From Candidatus Gottesmanbacteria bacterium UBA6580 (lineage in GTDB: Bacteria; Patescibacteriota; Microgenomatia; UBA10105; UBA927), in NCBI GenBank assembly GCA_002433895.1, contig DJJA01000003.1:575745-639744 (forward strand): DNA of 64,000 nt. The letters are read 5' to 3'. Position numbers and translations under genes: made by a program. The notes beneath the pieces are model-generated. The model was not told where the DNA came from, searched no databases, and saw nothing but the letters and a program-made list of their open reading frames with translations. Of the stretch, positions 1,086-43,904 are shown piece by piece (positions within the stretch are counted from its first letter, which is position 1; each line of letters opens with the position of its first letter).

Positions 1086-1658
1086 ATGACTTCCGAACGG
1101 GTATACAAAGCGGAAGGAATAATCCTCAAGCGGAAAAATATCAGCGAAGCTGACCGTATCCTCACTATTTTTACCAAAGAATACGGTAAAATACGCGCAA
1201 TTGCGAAAGGTATCCGGAAAGTTTCGAGCCGCAGAGCTCCTCACCTGGAGGTGTTTACCCGCGTCCGGTTGGTGCTCCACCGCGGGAAAACATTCGAAAA
1301 TATTTCTGAGGTAGAGCCGGTTGCGATATACCAACCCCTTCGTGAGGATTTAACGCGTGTCAGCATGGCCTATTATTTGTGTGAGCTGGTCGATAGTTTG
1401 CTTCCGGAACATCAGGAGCACCGGGACATATTTTTGTTACTATCGGAAGCGCTGTCATCGTTAAGCGCTGAAGATGGGACACGCATATACGAACGCGGTA
1501 AAGCATTTACCCTGGAGACATTGTGGAGCTTAGGATTCTTGCCCCGTACCAAAACGCTCAATGGGGAAAAGCTACAGGCATTTATCGAGACCATTACCGA
1601 ACGAAGGCTCAAAAGTACCCATTTTGCCAAACAACTGATGAACGAGAAGCTCGCTTGA
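1086..1658 (+). CDS. recO: DNA repair protein RecO (short form)
   Basis: N-terminal OB-fold signature 'VYKAEGIILKRKNISEADRILTIFTKEYGKIRAIAKG' is typical of RecO. The 190 aa length fits reduced-genome RecO. Confidence 0.7.
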   Translation: MTSERVYKAEGIILKRKNISEADRILTIFTKEYGKIRAIAKGIRKVSSRRAPHLEVFTRVRLVLHRGKTFENISEVEPVAIYQPLREDLTRVSMAYYLCELVDSLLPEHQEHRDIFLLLSEALSSLSAEDGTRIYERGKAFTLETLWSLGFLPRTKTLNGEKLQAFIETITERRLKSTHFAKQLMNEKLA

Positions 1659-1694
1659 CAGGGGAAAAGTGAAAAAGGTATCCTTAAAGTACGA

Positions 1695-1836
1695 AAGGCG
1701 ATGATCCCGGGTGGCACCGGATGAGCCAAACATAAATGAAGCAGCTCCGCCGTTTTGGCGGGGAAGTAGGGTGGAACCGTCCTGAGGATATGTCAAAGGA
1801 CCCCTATCACAATTGTATTGTGGTGGGGGATTTTTT
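1695..1836 (+). promoter_or_regulatory. Glycine-specific T-box riboswitch leader (transcription attenuator) upstream of glyQS, with an ultrashort Stem I
   Basis: T-box sequence AGGGTGGAACCG at 1768-1779, including the 7 nt bulge UGGAACC (UGGA can pair tRNA-Gly UCCA). Antiterminator helices are GTAGGG/CCCTAT and GTCC/GGAC. The terminator is a 13 bp stem at 1801-1829 followed by T6 at 1831-1836, and it overlaps the 3' strand of the antiterminator. Stem III is CCGCC-GTTTT-GGCGG at 1747-1761. Hairpin CCGG-GTGGCA-CCGG at 1707-1720 carries the glycine codon GGC plus A in its loop, flanked by GATGA/ATGAG K-turn-like motifs. Confidence 0.65.
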
Positions 1837-1951
1837 ATGAGGTAAGGCGAGCGAATGAATTCATATTCATGAGCATACTGCCACATATGGTTTCGCGCGA
1901 AGCGCATATATAAAAAACGAAACCATAAAAGATAATGAGGAGGATCTACAT

Positions 1952-3820: not shown

Positions 3821-4438
3821 TCACCGCGGCAAGCCAACGCTATTCATAATATGCGCTTCAGCGCCGTGTGCAGATGAATACCGCGCGATACTCAGTGATG
3901 TATTGGTAAACCCATATTCATTAACCTGTTCAAGCGGGATATCGAGAAAAACGGCAAAGAAATTCCTGATAAACGATCCGTGGGTAACAATGGCAATGTG
4001 TTTGCCTTCACAGTGCGTGAGCAGGTACCTGATGACCCTTTTTGACCGCGCCGAGACATCGTTAAGACTTTCTCCGTCAGGCGGACGGAACCGGGGATAT
4101 TGCCACATGCGGCCGAGCACTATTTGCGGGTACATGGCGCTTGCTGCTTCATACGATTTTCCTTCAAGAATGCCAAAATTCCGCTCGTGAAGCCCGGTCA
4201 ATTTCTTTAGCGGCGTATTGGCGTGATACCGCTGTATGGCTTGCGCTGTTTGGACGGCGCGTTTAAGCGGAGAAGTGACTACAAGGTCGAGATGGGTTGT
4301 TTTGAGGTAACGAGCAACATTGTCCGCCTGTTGCTTCCCGGCATCGTTAAGCGGGATATCGGAAATTCCCATTAATCGGCCATTTTTGTTCCAGTCTGTT
4401 TGTCCGTGCCGGACAACAAAAAAAGTCGTTGTGCTCAT
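3821..4438 (-). CDS. Histidine phosphatase family protein (phosphoglycerate mutase-like)
   Basis: The 'VVRHGQTDWN' RHG catalytic motif is near the N-terminus. Confidence 0.7.
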   Translation of the reverse strand: MSTTTFFVVRHGQTDWNKNGRLMGISDIPLNDAGKQQADNVARYLKTTHLDLVVTSPLKRAVQTAQAIQRYHANTPLKKLTGLHERNFGILEGKSYEAASAMYPQIVLGRMWQYPRFRPPDGESLNDVSARSKRVIRYLLTHCEGKHIAIVTHGSFIRNFFAVFLDIPLEQVNEYGFTNTSLSIARYSSAHGAEAHIMNSVGLPR

Positions 4439-4495
4439 AAACGTATTATACCTCGGCTACTGCTCTCGTATGGGAAAAATACTGTGAAATGCTAC

Positions 4496-4558: not shown

Positions 4559-4960
4559 ATGAATTTGTTTTTAGGGGAATATGACCATAGTTTAGACGAT
4601 CGGGCCAGAGTAACGCTCCCACGCAAGATCAGGTCAGAGATAGTGGGCGAGGAAATAGTACTTGCCAGGGGATATGAGGGATGTATTTTCGGATTTGATA
4701 AAGAGAGTTGGGAGAAAGAAGCGGGAAAGCACCTTGACACACCGGTAACTGATGAAAAAGGACGCCAGGTTCGCCGTTACTTGTTTGCGGGGGCACAGAA
4801 AGTGGAAATAGACAAACTAGGCCGCATTTTATTGCCAATCCAGCTCAAAGCACACGGCGCTATCGTCCGCGAAGTAAAAATCATTGGTGCCGGGGACCAT
4901 TTTGAGATATGGGATACCTCAAAATGGAATCAGTACGCTGCCAAGCTCGATACGGTATGA
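4559..4960 (+). CDS. mraZ: Transcriptional regulator MraZ
   Basis: 'FLGEYDHSLDDRARVTLP' and the duplicated DXXXR half-domains. First gene of the dcw cluster. Confidence 0.85.
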   Translation: MNLFLGEYDHSLDDRARVTLPRKIRSEIVGEEIVLARGYEGCIFGFDKESWEKEAGKHLDTPVTDEKGRQVRRYLFAGAQKVEIDKLGRILLPIQLKAHGAIVREVKIIGAGDHFEIWDTSKWNQYAAKLDTV

Positions 4961-5832
4961 GTGACACCCATGTATCCGTTTTACGGCAGGAGGCAATAGC
5001 CGCACTTGAAGTAGTGCCGGGGAAGAAATACATCGATGCGACAACAGGAGCTGGTGGACACAGCTTGGCGATTGTAAAAAAAGGAGGCGTACTGCTGGGT
5101 ATAGATCAGGACAAAGAAGCGCTGAGGATAGCGACACGCCGATTAGAACAAGAGCAGCTGAAGCCGGAAAACTGGACATTTACACAGGGAAATTTCCGCA
5201 ACATAGAAACGTTGGCGAATGCGCATGGTTTCAATTTGGTGAGCGGAATATTGTTTGATTTAGGTGTATCGAGTATGCAGTTAGATACACCGGAGCGGGG
5301 ATTTAGTTACAGGTTTACCGATGCTCCTCTGGATTTACGTATGGATACGTCCACTGGAGACACTGCTGCCCAATTGGTAAACCGGGTAACAGCTGAGGAA
5401 CTCTATGACATTTTTAGCTCGTATGGCGAAGAACAGCTGGCTCGGAAACTTGCTGATGCTGTTTACCGCGCCCGTTCGGTAAAACGGATAGTCACGGTCG
5501 GAGACCTCGTTGAAGTGGTGGCATCGGTGGTACCGGGTGAAAGCATGCGGTATGGGGTATTATCGAGAATTTTTCAGGGGTTACGAATTGCGGTCAACGA
5601 TGAATTATCGAGTTTAAAGCTGGGGTTAGAAGGGGCAAAACGGCTATTAGTACCAGGGGGTGTGTTGGCAGTCATCAGTTTTCATTCACTGGAAGATAGG
5701 ATAGTGAAGCAGTTTATGAGACAGGCTGGCTCGCAGGTCATAACAAAACATCCGATCCGGCCTGGAGAGCAGGAACAGGAAGTAAATAGACGTTCACGAA
5801 GCGCAAAATTACGGGTAGCCAAAAAACTATAA
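4957..5832 (+). CDS. rsmH: 16S rRNA (cytosine1402-N4)-methyltransferase RsmH
   Basis: 'HVSVLRQEAIAAL...YIDATTGAGGHS' SAM motif. The start ATG at 4957 overlaps the mraZ stop (ATGA). Confidence 0.85.
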   Translation: MSDTHVSVLRQEAIAALEVVPGKKYIDATTGAGGHSLAIVKKGGVLLGIDQDKEALRIATRRLEQEQLKPENWTFTQGNFRNIETLANAHGFNLVSGILFDLGVSSMQLDTPERGFSYRFTDAPLDLRMDTSTGDTAAQLVNRVTAEELYDIFSSYGEEQLARKLADAVYRARSVKRIVTVGDLVEVVASVVPGESMRYGVLSRIFQGLRIAVNDELSSLKLGLEGAKRLLVPGGVLAVISFHSLEDRIVKQFMRQAGSQVITKHPIRPGEQEQEVNRRSRSAKLRVAKKL

Positions 5833-39992: not shown

Positions 39993-40685
39993 ATGATTCA
40001 GGCAATACATCTCATAAAGCAATACAAAGCCGGGACGGGGAGTATCACGGTTTTAAACGACATATCATTGTCAGTATCGCGCGGGGAATTTCTCGCGATT
40101 ACGGGAAGATCGGGTTCGGGCAAAAGTACGCTGCTCTATCAGCTGAGTCTGCTGGATACGCCCACGAGCGGTAAAGTGGTTCTTGATAACCAGGACACCA
40201 CAGGATTTACCGACGATCAGCGCGTCAATTACCGGCTACGTGAACTCGGGTATGTTTTTCAGGATTATGCGCTTATTCCTTCGCTTACCGCCGCAGAAAA
40301 TATCATGGCGCCGCTTTTGATGTTGGGACGCTCATCTTCCGAGGCGTATGTGATCGCCTCTGAGGTGTTAGCTGAAGTGGGGCTTGCTGATAAACGAGAT
40401 AATTTGCCGAGTCAACTATCGGGCGGGCAACAACAACGGGTGAGTATCGCTCGGGCCATAGCCCATAAACCGAAAATAATTTTTGCGGATGAACCGACCG
40501 CGAATTTGGACAGTGAAACATCGGAGCAGGTGCTTCAGACTTTTCTGCGGATTCATAAGCAGGGACAAACGATCGTTATGGTGACGCATGAAGAAGAATA
40601 TACGCACCTGACGGATCGCGTCATTACGCTTTCTGACGGGCAAATTATTAAAACTAAAAAATCCCGATCTCCGCGAGGAAAGTAG
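39993..40685 (+). CDS. ABC transporter ATP-binding protein (MacB/LolD-like)
   Basis: Walker A 'GRSGSGKST', signature '[14 protein letters not shown]' and Walker B 'IIFADEPT'. Confidence 0.85.
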
Positions 40686-40717: not shown

Positions 40718-41002
40718 TTGTTTCGTGGCGTTGATTTTGTTATACTTGCCCATGGAAATGCGTTTGATCCCGGCTATCACCGGGAAAGGCAGGGAAAAGA
40801 AACCCGCATTGGCGGGATGTAGACTTCCCCGGGTACGCCCGTAATAGCAAAAAGAAGGGTAAATAGAAAGAGCGTAACGAGTAAATAGAAGTATTTTCTA
40901 TTTTCTGTTAACTTTTGACTATTTACTAAATTAAGGTGGTACCACGATCGGCACGAAGCTGACTCGTCCTTTATAGTAATATAGATAAGGACGGGTTTTT
41001 TT
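40718..41002 (+). promoter_or_regulatory. Isoleucine-specific T-box riboswitch leader (transcription attenuator) upstream of ileS, with an ultrashort Stem I
   Basis: Promoter TTGTTT-N17-TATACT at 40718-40746. Hairpin CCCGG-CTATCA-CCGGG at 40769-40784 carries the Ile codon ATC (40776-40778) plus A in its loop. T-box sequence AAATTAAGGTGGTACCACG at 40928-40946 includes the bulge UGGUACC (UGGU pairs tRNA-Ile ACCA). Antiterminator helices are AAGG/CCTT and ACGA/TCGT. The terminator is CGTCCTT...AAGGACG at 40965-40993 followed by T7 at 40996-41002, and it overlaps the antiterminator 3' strand. Confidence 0.65.
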
Positions 41003-41066
41003 GTGGCAGTTGACGGATTTGCCGTGTTACTGCCACATATGGCGAGAACTGAAAAGAAGTACCATT

Positions 41067-43904
41067 ATGGCAAAATTACAACAGGATAATTTTCAAGAAA
41101 AGCTTGATGTTCCCAAAAGTGAGCACGAAGTCCTGGCATTTTGGGATGAGACGAATGCGTTTGAGCGCTCAGTAAGCGAACGGCCTGCTGATAAGCAGTA
41201 CGTTTTTTATGATGGCCCGCCGTTTGCCACCGGACTGCCGCACTATGGCCATATTTTGGCTTCTACCATAAAAGATGTTATTCCCCGGTATTGGACCATG
41301 AAAGGCTATCGGGTAAGCCGCGTATGGGGGTGGGATTGTCACGGGATACCAATAGAAAACATGGTGGAAAAAGAGCTGGGACTCGTCGGCGGGAAAAAAG
41401 GCATCGAAGCCATGGGGATAGGAAAGTTTAACGACGCGTGCCGGGCGGCGATATTCCGTTTTGATAAAGAATGGGAAAAAGTGATCCACCGGATCGGACG
41501 ATGGGTTGATTTTAAGCACTCGTATAAGACCATGGATGCGACGTATATGGAGTCCGTCTGGTGGGCGTTTAAACAGCTGTACGACAAGGGACTTATATAC
41601 GAAGGGCGCAAGGTAATTTTGTACTGCCCGAGGTGCGCGACCCCACTTTCCAACTTTGAGATTGCCATGGATAACAGCTACAAGGACATGAATGGTCCGA
41701 GTACGATTTATAAATACAAAGTAACAAACGAGCCGGACACCTTTTTACTCGCCTGGTCGACGACGCCCTGGAATAAGCTCGCTACCCCGGCGCTTGCGGT
41801 AAACCCGACCATGAAATACGTGAAGGTTAAACAAAAAGGCGAGCAGTATATCCTCGCCAAAAGCACGGTTGGCATGCTCGACAACGAGCCGTACGAGGTG
41901 GTCGGGGAGTATATCGGTACTGATTTGGAAAAACTCACATTTGAGCTTCATTATGATTTTTATCCCCGGCGTGACGGAGAGCGCGCGGGTGTCGTGGTTG
42001 CAGACGAGTATGTCGCTGACGCCGAAGGCACAGGCATCGTGACACTGGCCGTATACGGGGAAGATGACTACCGGGTGATGACGAAGCATCATATCCAGCC
42101 CGTGGAGCATGTGGATAGCGAAGGAAAGCTCAAGCCGGAAGTCACTCCCTGGGCAGGGATGTTTATGCTCAAAGTAAATCCACTCGTCAATGAAGACCTG
42201 CAAAAACGTGGATTAGTGTACCGCAATGAGGACCGGCTCCACAGTGTCCCCGTGTGTTACCGCTGTGAAACACGGCTATATCACGCGCCGGTGCCGGCGT
42301 GGTTTATCAATGTTGCCAAGATTAAAAATGATCTGATTACGCAAAATGAACACATCAATTGGTATCCGGATCACCTGAAGCATGGACGTTTCGGGAAGGG
42401 ACTTGAGACTGCTCCTGATTGGAATATTTCCCGTTCCCGTTATTGGGGGACGCCAATGCCAATCTGGGTAGACACAAAAACCGCGAAAATGCGCATTGTC
42501 GGATCACTCGAAGAACTCCGTACGTGGGCAGTAGATCAGGATAGCGCTCGCAAACTTACCGATATCCATCGTGAGTTTTTGGATGACCTGGAAGTATGGG
42601 TAGATGATGAAAAAACGGTGAAAGGGAAGCGGATCCCGGAAGTATTTGATTGTTGGGTAGAGAGCGGGAGCATGCCGTATGCCTCCATTCACTATCCGTT
42701 TGAGCATAAAAAAGAATTTGAGCAGTCGCACCCGGCGCAGTTTATTGCTGAATACATAGCGCAAACACGCGCGTGGTTTTATACCCTGCACGTGATGTCC
42801 GTAGGATTATTTGGTACCCACACATTTGAAAACGCGGTGACTACCGGCACAATTCTTGCAGAAGATGGCGCCAAAATGAGCAAGAGCAAGAAAAATTATC
42901 CGGATCCCACGCTGCTTTTTGAAAAATACGGTGTTGACGCGCTGCGGTTTTACCTCATGGGATCGGTCGTGATGAAGGCGGAAAATGTGAACTTTTCTGA
43001 AGAAGGCGTGAAAGAGATATACCAAAAAGTGGTATCGACTACGTGGAACGTATTTAGCTTTTATAAATTATATGTAAAAGGTGCGCCACCCGCCACTGCT
43101 CCGAAGCCAACGCATGTCATGGATAAATGGATATTGAGCAAGCTCAATACGCTTATCATCGATGTGACCGGGGCAATGGACGGCTACGATACGACGCATA
43201 CCTGCCGGTTGCTGGTTTCGTTTATCACCGACCTCTCTACGTGGTACCTCCGGAGAAGCCGTGACCGGATACAAGCCGATGAGACAGGACAACAGGTGTT
43301 TGGTTGGGTGCTATCCTGCCTTATCCGTCTTATGGCACCGATCACTCCGTTTATTACTGAGCGTATGTATCAAAATATGGAAACGACGGGCAACTCAATC
43401 CATCTCGCCGAGTGGCCGGTTGCCGATGAAAGCCTCATCGATACCACGCTGGATACCCATATGGCATTTGTGAGAACTGTCGCGGAGCTTGGGAATGCGA
43501 AACGTAAAGAGCTGGGTATACCGGTGCGCCAGCCGCTTAATAAAATAACGGTTGCTACCGCAAATAACGCGCCGTCTGACGAATGGCTATCGGTTGCTCT
43601 CGAGGAACTGAACATAAAAACTTGTGTGGTGGTCAAAACAGACAAAGAAACATCAGTAGAACTCGATACTACGATCACCCCGGAGCTTCAGGCAGAGGGT
43701 GACGCGCGTAAGCTCATCCGTGAAATCCAAGTGCTCCGGAAAGAAAAGGGTTGTAAGATAGATGAATACGTGTCGCTCGTGTTACCGGAAAGTTACAAAT
43801 CACTTGAAACTTTGCTGCCTCAGATAAAACAAGCTACACTGGCAAGTACAATCACATGGGGCGATCAACTTTCCATCGATACACACAAGACGGGCACCAA
43901 GTAG
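41067..43904 (+). CDS. ileS: Isoleucine--tRNA ligase
   Basis: 'PPFATGLPHYGHIL' HIGH motif, 'KMSKSKKN' KMSKS motif, and 945 aa length. Confidence 0.9.
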   Translation: MAKLQQDNFQEKLDVPKSEHEVLAFWDETNAFERSVSERPADKQYVFYDGPPFATGLPHYGHILASTIKDVIPRYWTMKGYRVSRVWGWDCHGIPIENMVEKELGLVGGKKGIEAMGIGKFNDACRAAIFRFDKEWEKVIHRIGRWVDFKHSYKTMDATYMESVWWAFKQLYDKGLIYEGRKVILYCPRCATPLSNFEIAMDNSYKDMNGPSTIYKYKVTNEPDTFLLAWSTTPWNKLATPALAVNPTMKYVKVKQKGEQYILAKSTVGMLDNEPYEVVGEYIGTDLEKLTFELHYDFYPRRDGERAGVVVADEYVADAEGTGIVTLAVYGEDDYRVMTKHHIQPVEHVDSEGKLKPEVTPWAGMFMLKVNPLVNEDLQKRGLVYRNEDRLHSVPVCYRCETRLYHAPVPAWFINVAKIKNDLITQNEHINWYPDHLKHGRFGKGLETAPDWNISRSRYWGTPMPIWVDTKTAKMRIVGSLEELRTWAVDQDSARKLTDIHREFLDDLEVWVDDEKTVKGKRIPEVFDCWVESGSMPYASIHYPFEHKKEFEQSHPAQFIAEYIAQTRAWFYTLHVMSVGLFGTHTFENAVTTGTILAEDGAKMSKSKKNYPDPTLLFEKYGVDALRFYLMGSVVMKAENVNFSEEGVKEIYQKVVSTTWNVFSFYKLYVKGAPPATAPKPTHVMDKWILSKLNTLIIDVTGAMDGYDTTHTCRLLVSFITDLSTWYLRRSRDRIQADETGQQVFGWVLSCLIRLMAPITPFITERMYQNMETTGNSIHLAEWPVADESLIDTTLDTHMAFVRTVAELGNAKRKELGIPVRQPLNKITVATANNAPSDEWLSVALEELNIKTCVVVKTDKETSVELDTTITPELQAEGDARKLIREIQVLRKEKGCKIDEYVSLVLPESYKSLETLLPQIKQATLASTITWGDQLSIDTHKTGTK

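Follow-up and report, generated by a model that had tools for sequence, protein, structure and literature searches.

Positions 40759-41002 of the window, that is, of the whole 64,000 nt stretch analysed here, represent a T-box leader upstream of ileS, the gene for isoleucyl-tRNA synthetase (IleRS), and from sequence, structure and homology it is predicted to sense tRNA-Ile. The window stems from Candidatus Gottesmanbacteria (Patescibacteria), which the NCBI lineage places in the Microgenomates group of Patescibacteria. Very probably the leader is a tRNA-Ile T-box riboswitch in which the decoding half of the published Class III is combined with an expression half of the transcription attenuator type. 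Judged computationally, the expression platform shows all the hallmarks of an intrinsic terminator. The original prediction had placed an ileS T-box with its specifier in a hairpin loop at this site, and all of its elements (promoter, hairpin, T-box, antiterminator, terminator and U7) are found where it had put them. The leader and its surroundings comprise the following features.

40718-40746 (+): promoter read from the sequence, with the -35 box TTGTTT at 40718-40723, a 17 nt spacer and TATACT at 40741-40746.
40759-40791 (+): ultrashort Stem I, a 3 bp C-stem plus a 6 bp specifier hairpin (minimum free energy fold, covariation in 17 leaders).
40759-61 / 40789-91 (+): C-stem UGC/GCA, two of its three pairs changed on both sides across the 17 leaders.
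40762-67 / 40786-88 (+): Stem I internal loop GUUUGA/AAG at a degenerate kink-turn (K-turn) position (minimum free energy fold).
40769-40784 (+): specifier hairpin CCCGG-CUAUCA-CCGGG, lengthened by a U-A pair to 40768-40785.
40774-79 (+): apical loop CUAUCA with AUC at 40776-78 and the following A at 40779.
40792-40829 (+): Stem II (covariation, conserved loops).
40792-96 / 40825-29 (+): lower helix of Stem II, GGGAA/UUCCC, 5 of 5 pairs covarying.
40797-802 / 40817-24 (+): S-turn-type internal loop AAGAAA/AUGUAGAC, conserved in relatives.
40803-07 / 40812-16 (+): upper helix of Stem II, CCCGC/GCGGG with loop AUUG, 5 of 5 pairs covarying.
40830-40848 (+): Stem IIA hairpin CGGG-UACG-CCCG (40830-41), then the F-box-like sequence UAAUAGC (40842-48).
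40849-57 (+): purine-rich linker AAAAAGAAG with conserved AAGAAG.
40858-40927 (+): Stem III, long and AU-rich, 70 nt, -20.5 kcal/mol when folded separately.
40928-40971 (+): T-box and antiterminator (Rfam RF00230 alignment, posterior probability close to 1).
40928-40946 (+): T-box sequence AAATTAAGGTGGTACCACG with UGGU at 40937-40940.
40933-36 / 40968-71 (+): antiterminator helix A1, AAGG/CCUU.
40937-43 (+): 7 nt bulge UGGUACC between A1 and A2, its UGGU predicted to pair with ACCA-3'.
40944-47 / 40964-67 (+): antiterminator helix A2, ACGA/UCGU, with apical extension CGGC/GCUG.
40963-41002 (+): terminator-like hairpin CUCGUCCUU (40963-71) / AAGGACGGG (40987-95), then U7 (40996-41002).
41003-41066 (+): spacer of ~64-65 nt between terminator and start codon, containing a hairpin and a weak Shine-Dalgarno (SD)-like AAGAAG before the ATG.
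41003-09 / 41030-36 (+): spacer hairpin GUGGCAG/CUGCCAC.
41030-42 (+): 13-mer CUGCCACAUAUGG, with an exact copy in the leader of glyS at 1878-1890.
41067-43904 (+): ileS, encoding the IleRS of 945 aa, the regulated gene (NCBIfam TIGR00392).

Specificity for tRNA-Ile is supported by the agreement of codon (AUC), bulge (UGGU) and gene. The open reading frame (ORF) with the ATG at 41067 scores 776 bits against TIGR00392 (cutoff 621). Across 17 ileS leaders AUC lies within the apical loop without exception and is followed by A in 15, the loop size varying from 5 to 8 nt. The usual discriminator bases are A73 in tRNA-Ile and U73 in tRNA-Gly. With the host tRNAs taken as usual, UGGU of the ileS leader fits A73 and UGGA of the second T-box leader of the window, upstream of glyS, fits U73.

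The comparison set was derived from an IleRS protein scan of reference genomes, which yielded 37 loci (given as L numbers below). The nearest IleRS relatives are encoded in Candidatus Gottesmanbacteria and 'Patescibacteria group' assemblies with 92% and ~82% identity, respectively. Fifteen loci carry AGGUGGUACC upstream of ileS; together with the window this amounts to 16 leaders, all of them with a short AUC-loop hairpin. L030, found by the covariance model described below, completes the set of 17.

Since plain MAFFT lost the register for loops of 6, 7 and 8 nt and for the variable lengths of Stem II, a covariance model (R1) was built from eight compact leaders. It describes the decoding module, from the C-stem and the specifier hairpin through both helices of Stem II to Stem IIA, and it recovers each of the 16 leaders in addition to L030. 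In the window R1 gives a single match at 40757-40848 with 103.5 bits (E ~4e-20). In the R1-fitted alignment of the 17 leaders 93.8% of the cells pair, compared to 69% in column shuffles and 48-55% if the partners are slid by one column. Moreover, 19 of 23 pairs are changed on both sides, including all six pairs of the specifier hairpin and all ten of Stem II. The specifier stems accordingly differ in sequence (CCCGG/CCGGG, GUCUGA/UCAGAC, GUCCG/CGGAC, UUUGG/CCAAA, GGGAG/CUCC and others). A chance match had been called unlikely beforehand, and this is borne out by the Rfam E-value (2.7e-4, see below), the R1 score and the hairpin with AUC loop, which is kept by compensatory changes in 17 of 17 leaders.

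Stem I lacks a distal double T-loop (IDTM) platform. Its promoter was not listed by a simple consensus scan and the -35 box is weak, but a TG at 40738-40739 creates an extended -10 box (TG-n-TATACT). In about 15 of the 17 related leaders TGnTATACT or TGnTATAAT precedes the specifier hairpin by 18-25 nt. In L009, L012, L023 and L037 the specifier hairpin is followed by an extra, inserted hairpin of 5-6 bp before the 3' strand of the C-stem is reached, giving a three-way junction at the base of Stem I. R1 took this inserted hairpin as Stem I, the AUC hairpin being located just upstream.

The ~140 nt between Stem I and the T-box had been proposed to hold Stem II and a IIA/B pseudoknot. Stem II with its S-turn, Stem IIA with the F-box-like sequence and additionally Stem III are present there, while the IIB pairing is without covariation. 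The S-turn signature (RAAGAA on the 5' side, AGUAGA on the 3' side) is kept in all relatives. The Rfam consensus also contains an S-turn; GUA of the window is aligned to AGUA of the model, with low posterior probability. Stem IIA and the F-box-like element are near invariant in 16 of 17 leaders (L014 lacks the Stem IIA element) and hence uninformative for covariation; they align to Stem IIA and CCGUUA of the Rfam model with a posterior probability close to 1. Stem III is absent from most relatives (L001, L002, L004, L005, L006, L008, L013, L034, L037). In leaders of this kind no more than 17-20 nt separate Stem IIA from the T-box, and this linker includes the conserved AAGAAG.

The T-box consensus AGGGUGGNACCGCG is matched by AAGGUGGUACCACG at 40933-40946. 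The 3' strands of A2 and A1 (40964-71) form the 5' strand of the terminator, and antiterminator and terminator are therefore mutually exclusive, in line with what had been read from the sequence for this site and for the UGGU bulge. The predicted fold energies are -20.4 kcal/mol for the terminator state and -10.6 kcal/mol for the enforced antiterminator. A terminator that forms by default and an antiterminator that needs the tRNA are, as far as these folds go, the usual T-box arrangement. In 15 of 15 readable related genome leaders a hairpin is flush with a U-rich tract (a U5-U7 run in 14, UUAUUUU in L012), and the stem sequences differ while the pairing is kept. A strict scan of the window, restricted to hairpins at least as stable as -9 kcal/mol that directly abut six or more U's, found 11 sites versus a mean of 2.75 in shuffles (~4-fold), and both T-box terminators are among them.

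L005, L034 and L037 show another platform. Here a downstream GUGGUACC with U6-7 pairs back onto GGUACCAC of the T-box, GGUACC being palindromic, so that the terminator sequesters the tRNA-binding bulge itself and not the antiterminator's 3' strand.

Based on these elements the following mechanism is proposed. Transcription would start a few nt before 40759, and the short Stem I in the nascent RNA would present AUC and the following A in its 6 nt apical loop. Stem II would form next, its S-turn would dock on the specifier, and Stems I and II would clamp the anticodon stem-loop of tRNA-Ile(GAU), a clamp substituting for the absent elbow-binding platform. The Stem IIA element, the purine linker and Stem III would position the T-box bulge. 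If the tRNA is uncharged, its ACCA-3' would pair with UGGU and stabilise the weak antiterminator, leading to read-through into ileS. With the tRNA charged or absent the hairpin at 40963-40995, ~10 kcal/mol more stable, would form and transcription would stop at U7. In this scheme tRNA binding and termination itself are predicted, and the clamp is adopted by homology to solved actinobacterial complexes.

The distribution of platforms was followed in a wider sample. Metagenome contigs were scanned with a gene-independent pattern (3' S-turn, lower Stem II, Stem IIA and F-box), which returned at least 120 loci, 113 of them with R1 matches (114 in total). Leaders with apical AUC and a T-box core were sorted by GC content and by the presence of a U-run. 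Among the matches listed, 27 have a U-run and 2 have none at GC contents below 0.50, 3 and 2 at 0.50-0.58, and 1 and 36 at 0.58 or more, as counted by a noisy automated hairpin picker that took up spurious hairpins in L103, L041 and L061 and mis-sorted four further genome leaders with U-rich tracts (L002, L006, L012, L014). By chance about 20% of 115 nt stretches at 30% T are estimated to contain a run of five T's. The high-GC leaders have a Stem I (GGC-GUUGA-UCCGG-CCAUCA-CCGGG-GA-GCC) near-identical to that of the window but with a canonical K-turn, and they lack a U-run; judged by GC content and sequence they presumably represent the actinobacterial translational class. The decoding module is thus shared, and the split of U-runs between low-GC and high-GC leaders suggests that the type of platform follows the lineage.

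Alternatively, the hairpin of the window might mainly sequester the SD-like AAGGA in a translational switch, or in a combined one acting on transcription and translation as in Actinobacteria, with the U-tract incidental or part of the initiation region. The published class with the same decoding module is described as translational. Moreover, L002, L006, L008, L012 and L033 have no spacer: the AUG directly follows the U-tract and AAGGA(G) of the hairpin 3' strand lies ~11-12 nt upstream of it, which is an SD distance. From this arrangement one hairpin may serve these five leaders as terminator and sequestrator at once, controlling transcription and translation. In the window, however, the hairpin cannot mask the ribosome-binding site of ileS, because U7 ends ~65 nt before the ATG, and AAGGA is ~75 nt away. 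L001, L003, L004 and L023 are alike, the U-tract being located 64-116 nt upstream of the start codon in these loci and the window. The U-run is also kept in such leaders with a distant hairpin, whereas it is near absent, among the matches listed, from the presumably translational high-GC leaders. We consider such a translational switch unlikely for the window.

Two further explanations are much less probable than translational control. The leader could be a decaying relic which regulates nothing any more, as the low Rfam score, the degenerate K-turn position and the complete loss of the leader in two relatives of the glyS locus (L160, L164) might indicate. Compensatory changes, though, keep every helix across 17 genomes with IleRS identities from 92% down to ~30%, and codon, UGGU bulge, S-turn motifs, promoter and terminator are all conserved, which renders decay very improbable. 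Still further down we rank the existence, elsewhere in the leader, of a long canonical Stem I whose specifier sits in an internal loop, which would reduce the AUC hairpin to a sub-element or a coincidence. It could draw on the Rfam global alignment, which sets 'Stem I' downstream of the hairpin, at 40783-40815. In this stretch the posterior probability is low and 69 model positions are deleted, and we dropped the placement, as the same bases belong to the covarying Stem II. Upstream, a long Stem I is ruled out because the conserved extended -10 box leaves few nt before the C-stem; the neighbouring gene ends at 40685. No alternative canonical Stem I was found in the leader when looked for. Furthermore, true long-Stem-I leaders look quite different: those of valS caught by the metagenome scan (L087, L064, L097 and others) exhibit an AGAGA bulge, distal loops and a GAAGUCG internal loop.

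Several observations weigh against a tRNA-Ile riboswitch that acts by termination. The K-turn position of the window is degenerate, whereas many relatives and the glyS leader have the canonical GA/GA. At gathering score an Rfam scan of the window returned tRNA only and no T-box. With permissive filters RF00230 matches 40783-40974 with 35.7 bits (E = 2.3e-6 local, 2.7e-4 for the whole window), and the T-box and antiterminator are aligned with the high posterior probability given above, but the score stays below the gathering threshold of 93 bits. We do not read this as the rejection by the T-box model that might have been feared, because a control, the ileS leader of a Lachnospiraceae (Firmicute), also falls below 93 with 45.5 bits; the relatives reach 26-44 bits. 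Covariation was counted on an alignment fitted to R1's own structure, which favours that structure; the slide control and the raw sequences agree with the result. A IIB pseudoknot pairing shows no consistent covariation when loop and linker bases are compared by eye. For tRNA-Ile of the host, anticodon GAU and A73 are assumed, as the tRNA genes within the window comprise tRNA-Val only and no tRNA-Ile. A loose terminator scan of the window, limited to loops of 8 nt and for that reason missing the ileS terminator, gave no enrichment (22 found, 22.3 expected in shuffles), and only the stricter test supports a wide use of intrinsic terminators in this genome. Finally, it has been argued on kinetic grounds that transcriptional T-boxes need the elbow contact or long Stem I platform for fast tRNA capture (PMC7583486), by which termination control with an ultrashort design is less expected.

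The decoding module itself is known. Class III T-boxes, with ileS of Nocardia farcinica as type, have a short platform-less Stem I, a penta- or hexanucleotide apical Specifier loop and require Stem II (PMC10482949). This ultrashort module of actinobacterial ileS has been published (PMC10482949; PMC7583486; 10.1101/2023.02.28.530422), with members in N. farcinica, Mycobacterium tuberculosis and M. smegmatis and PDB entries 6UFM and 6UFG (PMC7583486; PMC10482949), and in co-crystal structures the anticodon stem-loop is seen clamped by Stems I and II (PMC7583486; PMC10482949). The class is described as translational and actinobacterial, a sequestrator without U-tract masking the Shine-Dalgarno sequence. 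The short-Stem-I model of TBDB was run on Actinobacteria and on sequences flagged by the class I model with a truncated Stem I (PMC7778990). The literature searched contains no paper that pairs 'T-box riboswitch' with the name of any group of the Candidate Phyla Radiation.

The window shares with Class III the short Stem I lacking the elbow-binding double T-loop platform, AUC followed by a purine, here A, in a penta-/hexanucleotide apical loop, the S-turn Stem II, the Stem IIA hairpin with F-box-like sequence, the UGGU bulge and the gene ileS. It differs in its platform (hairpin and U7 ~65 nt before the ATG instead of an SD sequestrator without U-tract), its host (Patescibacteria instead of Actinobacteria), the degenerate K-turn position and the long AU-rich insertion which constitutes Stem III. 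With the canonical transcriptional Class I (tyrS of Bacillus subtilis; RF00230) it has in common the T-box sequence and 7 nt bulge, antiterminator and terminator competing for one strand, the U-tract at the end, Stem II, the Stem IIA hairpin and, as far as predicted for the window, positive control by uncharged tRNA. The Stem I features of Class I are absent, and no such motifs are found where the RF00230 alignment deletes its Stem I positions. Hence the architecture, which had been called unusual, is not new in itself; what differs is the terminator-type platform and the patescibacterial host, neither the combination nor the host being described in the accessible literature, where pairing a terminator with an ultrashort Stem I is treated as atypical.

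The second T-box leader of the window belongs to a gene that had been named glyQS but actually encodes a dimeric glyS-type GlyRS. Its features, derived from sequence elements and six relatives, are these.

1657-1838 (+), region to 1951: glyS leader, a minimal T-box.
~1698-1733 (+): clean K-turn GGC-GAUGA...UGA-GCC.
~1803-1836 (+): strong terminator.

The order of elements is K-turn, 4 bp hairpin, short single-stranded linker, Stem III, GGGUGGAACC with UGGA, and strong terminator. The 4 bp hairpin has the apical loop GUGGCA containing GGC and then A. As had been proposed, the loop register equals that of ileS: in CUAUCA and GUGGCA the codon occupies loop positions 3-5 and A position 6. Here too the specificity agrees (GGC, UGGA, GlyRS). 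Neither Stem II, IIA/B nor an elbow-binding platform is found in the leader, and R1 does not match it. The design is kept in six relatives (L158, L159, L161, L162, L163, L165) with GlyRS identities of 71-91%, including compensatory changes in the hairpin (CUCAA/UUGAG, CUUGG/CCAAG, CCCG/CGGG, UGCA/UGCA); in L160 and L164 the leader is missing altogether. The notion of a lineage-typical design thus holds, as it is common to the 17 ileS and the 6 related glyS leaders.

The Class II glycine T-box (glyQS of B. subtilis) likewise shows a GGC specifier, a single-stranded linker, Stem III, a UGGA bulge and a terminator, with no Stem II or IIA/B. In contrast to the glyS leader, in which a K-turn and a 4 bp GGC-loop hairpin suffice, it has a long Stem I and the elbow-binding platform. 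Having neither platform nor Stem II, the glyS leader fits none of the published Classes I-IV. The lack of Stem II follows the published rule that Stem II is required solely for A-U-rich codons.

Three leaders on low-GC metagenome contigs combine an apical-loop T-box with Stem II and a U-run upstream of genes other than ileS. L103 (match 4115-4144) precedes aspS (AspRS) with loop CAAACA and bulge UGGC, L041 (reverse strand) valS (ValRS) with loop UUUACGUCG, and L101 (match 4429-4458) an archaeal-type phosphoenolpyruvate (PEP) carboxylase with loop CCCGACA. The ValRS of L041 contains an inserted HAD-type hydrolase domain (residues ~241-425). With the specifiers assigned by eye only, these leaders would run counter to the published claim that all ultrashort T-boxes regulate ileS.

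Whether all these leaders belong to one platform-less, termination-acting T-box family of Patescibacteria and other low-GC uncultured lineages, spanning several amino acids, is in our view an evenly balanced proposition. It would take in Ile and Gly, both represented in the window, and on metagenome contigs apparently Asn/Asp and Val as well as a PEP carboxylase linked to Asp. Its glycine representative, a leader of ~120-180 nt, has neither platform nor Stem II. If this is true, tRNA-elbow contact and Stem II clamp would both be dispensable for co-transcriptional tRNA sensing, contrary to the kinetic argument. Covarying ultrashort T-boxes joined to terminators would bear directly on the long-Stem-I rule, and the glycine version without Stem II would be harder still to reconcile with it. 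The leaders represent compact natural constructs for in vitro transcription and binding assays. For Patescibacteria, where gene regulation is almost unstudied, they would place at least two aminoacyl-tRNA synthetase genes under predicted RNA-sensor control. Present family thresholds and phylum-restricted searches would miss such leaders.

Several loci with window-like IleRS come from assemblies titled 'uncultured Gammaproteobacteria' or 'Pseudomonadales' (L002-L005, L009-L012, L014, L019, L023, L030, L034). Their IleRS are 31-82% identical to that of the window and most have the same leader; judged by these sequences the assemblies are probably mislabelled bins.

Two other hits in the window were discarded. 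GGTGGTACC at 5526 is a chance occurrence within a coding ORF (4909-5832). A weak match to CRISPR-DR20 of Rfam at 42220-42297 on the minus strand (27.1 bits, E = 0.18) falls inside the ileS coding region and is almost certainly due to chance.

Exact copies of the 13-mer CUGCCACAUAUGG are confined to the two T-box leaders of the window, those of ileS and glyS. Beyond that, a structured post-terminator spacer is common to ileS and glyS leaders of different genomes (window 41003-41042 and 1839-1890; L003 2928-2979; L004 1331-1378; L159 613-663; L161 595-646), and it has no Rfam match. It forms a long hairpin, includes a tandem GA motif (…UAACGA-[6-bp hairpin, loop UCNU]-GAGUUUAG…) and ends with GCCACAUAUGG. 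Judged by eye, this spacer also exhibits compensatory changes.

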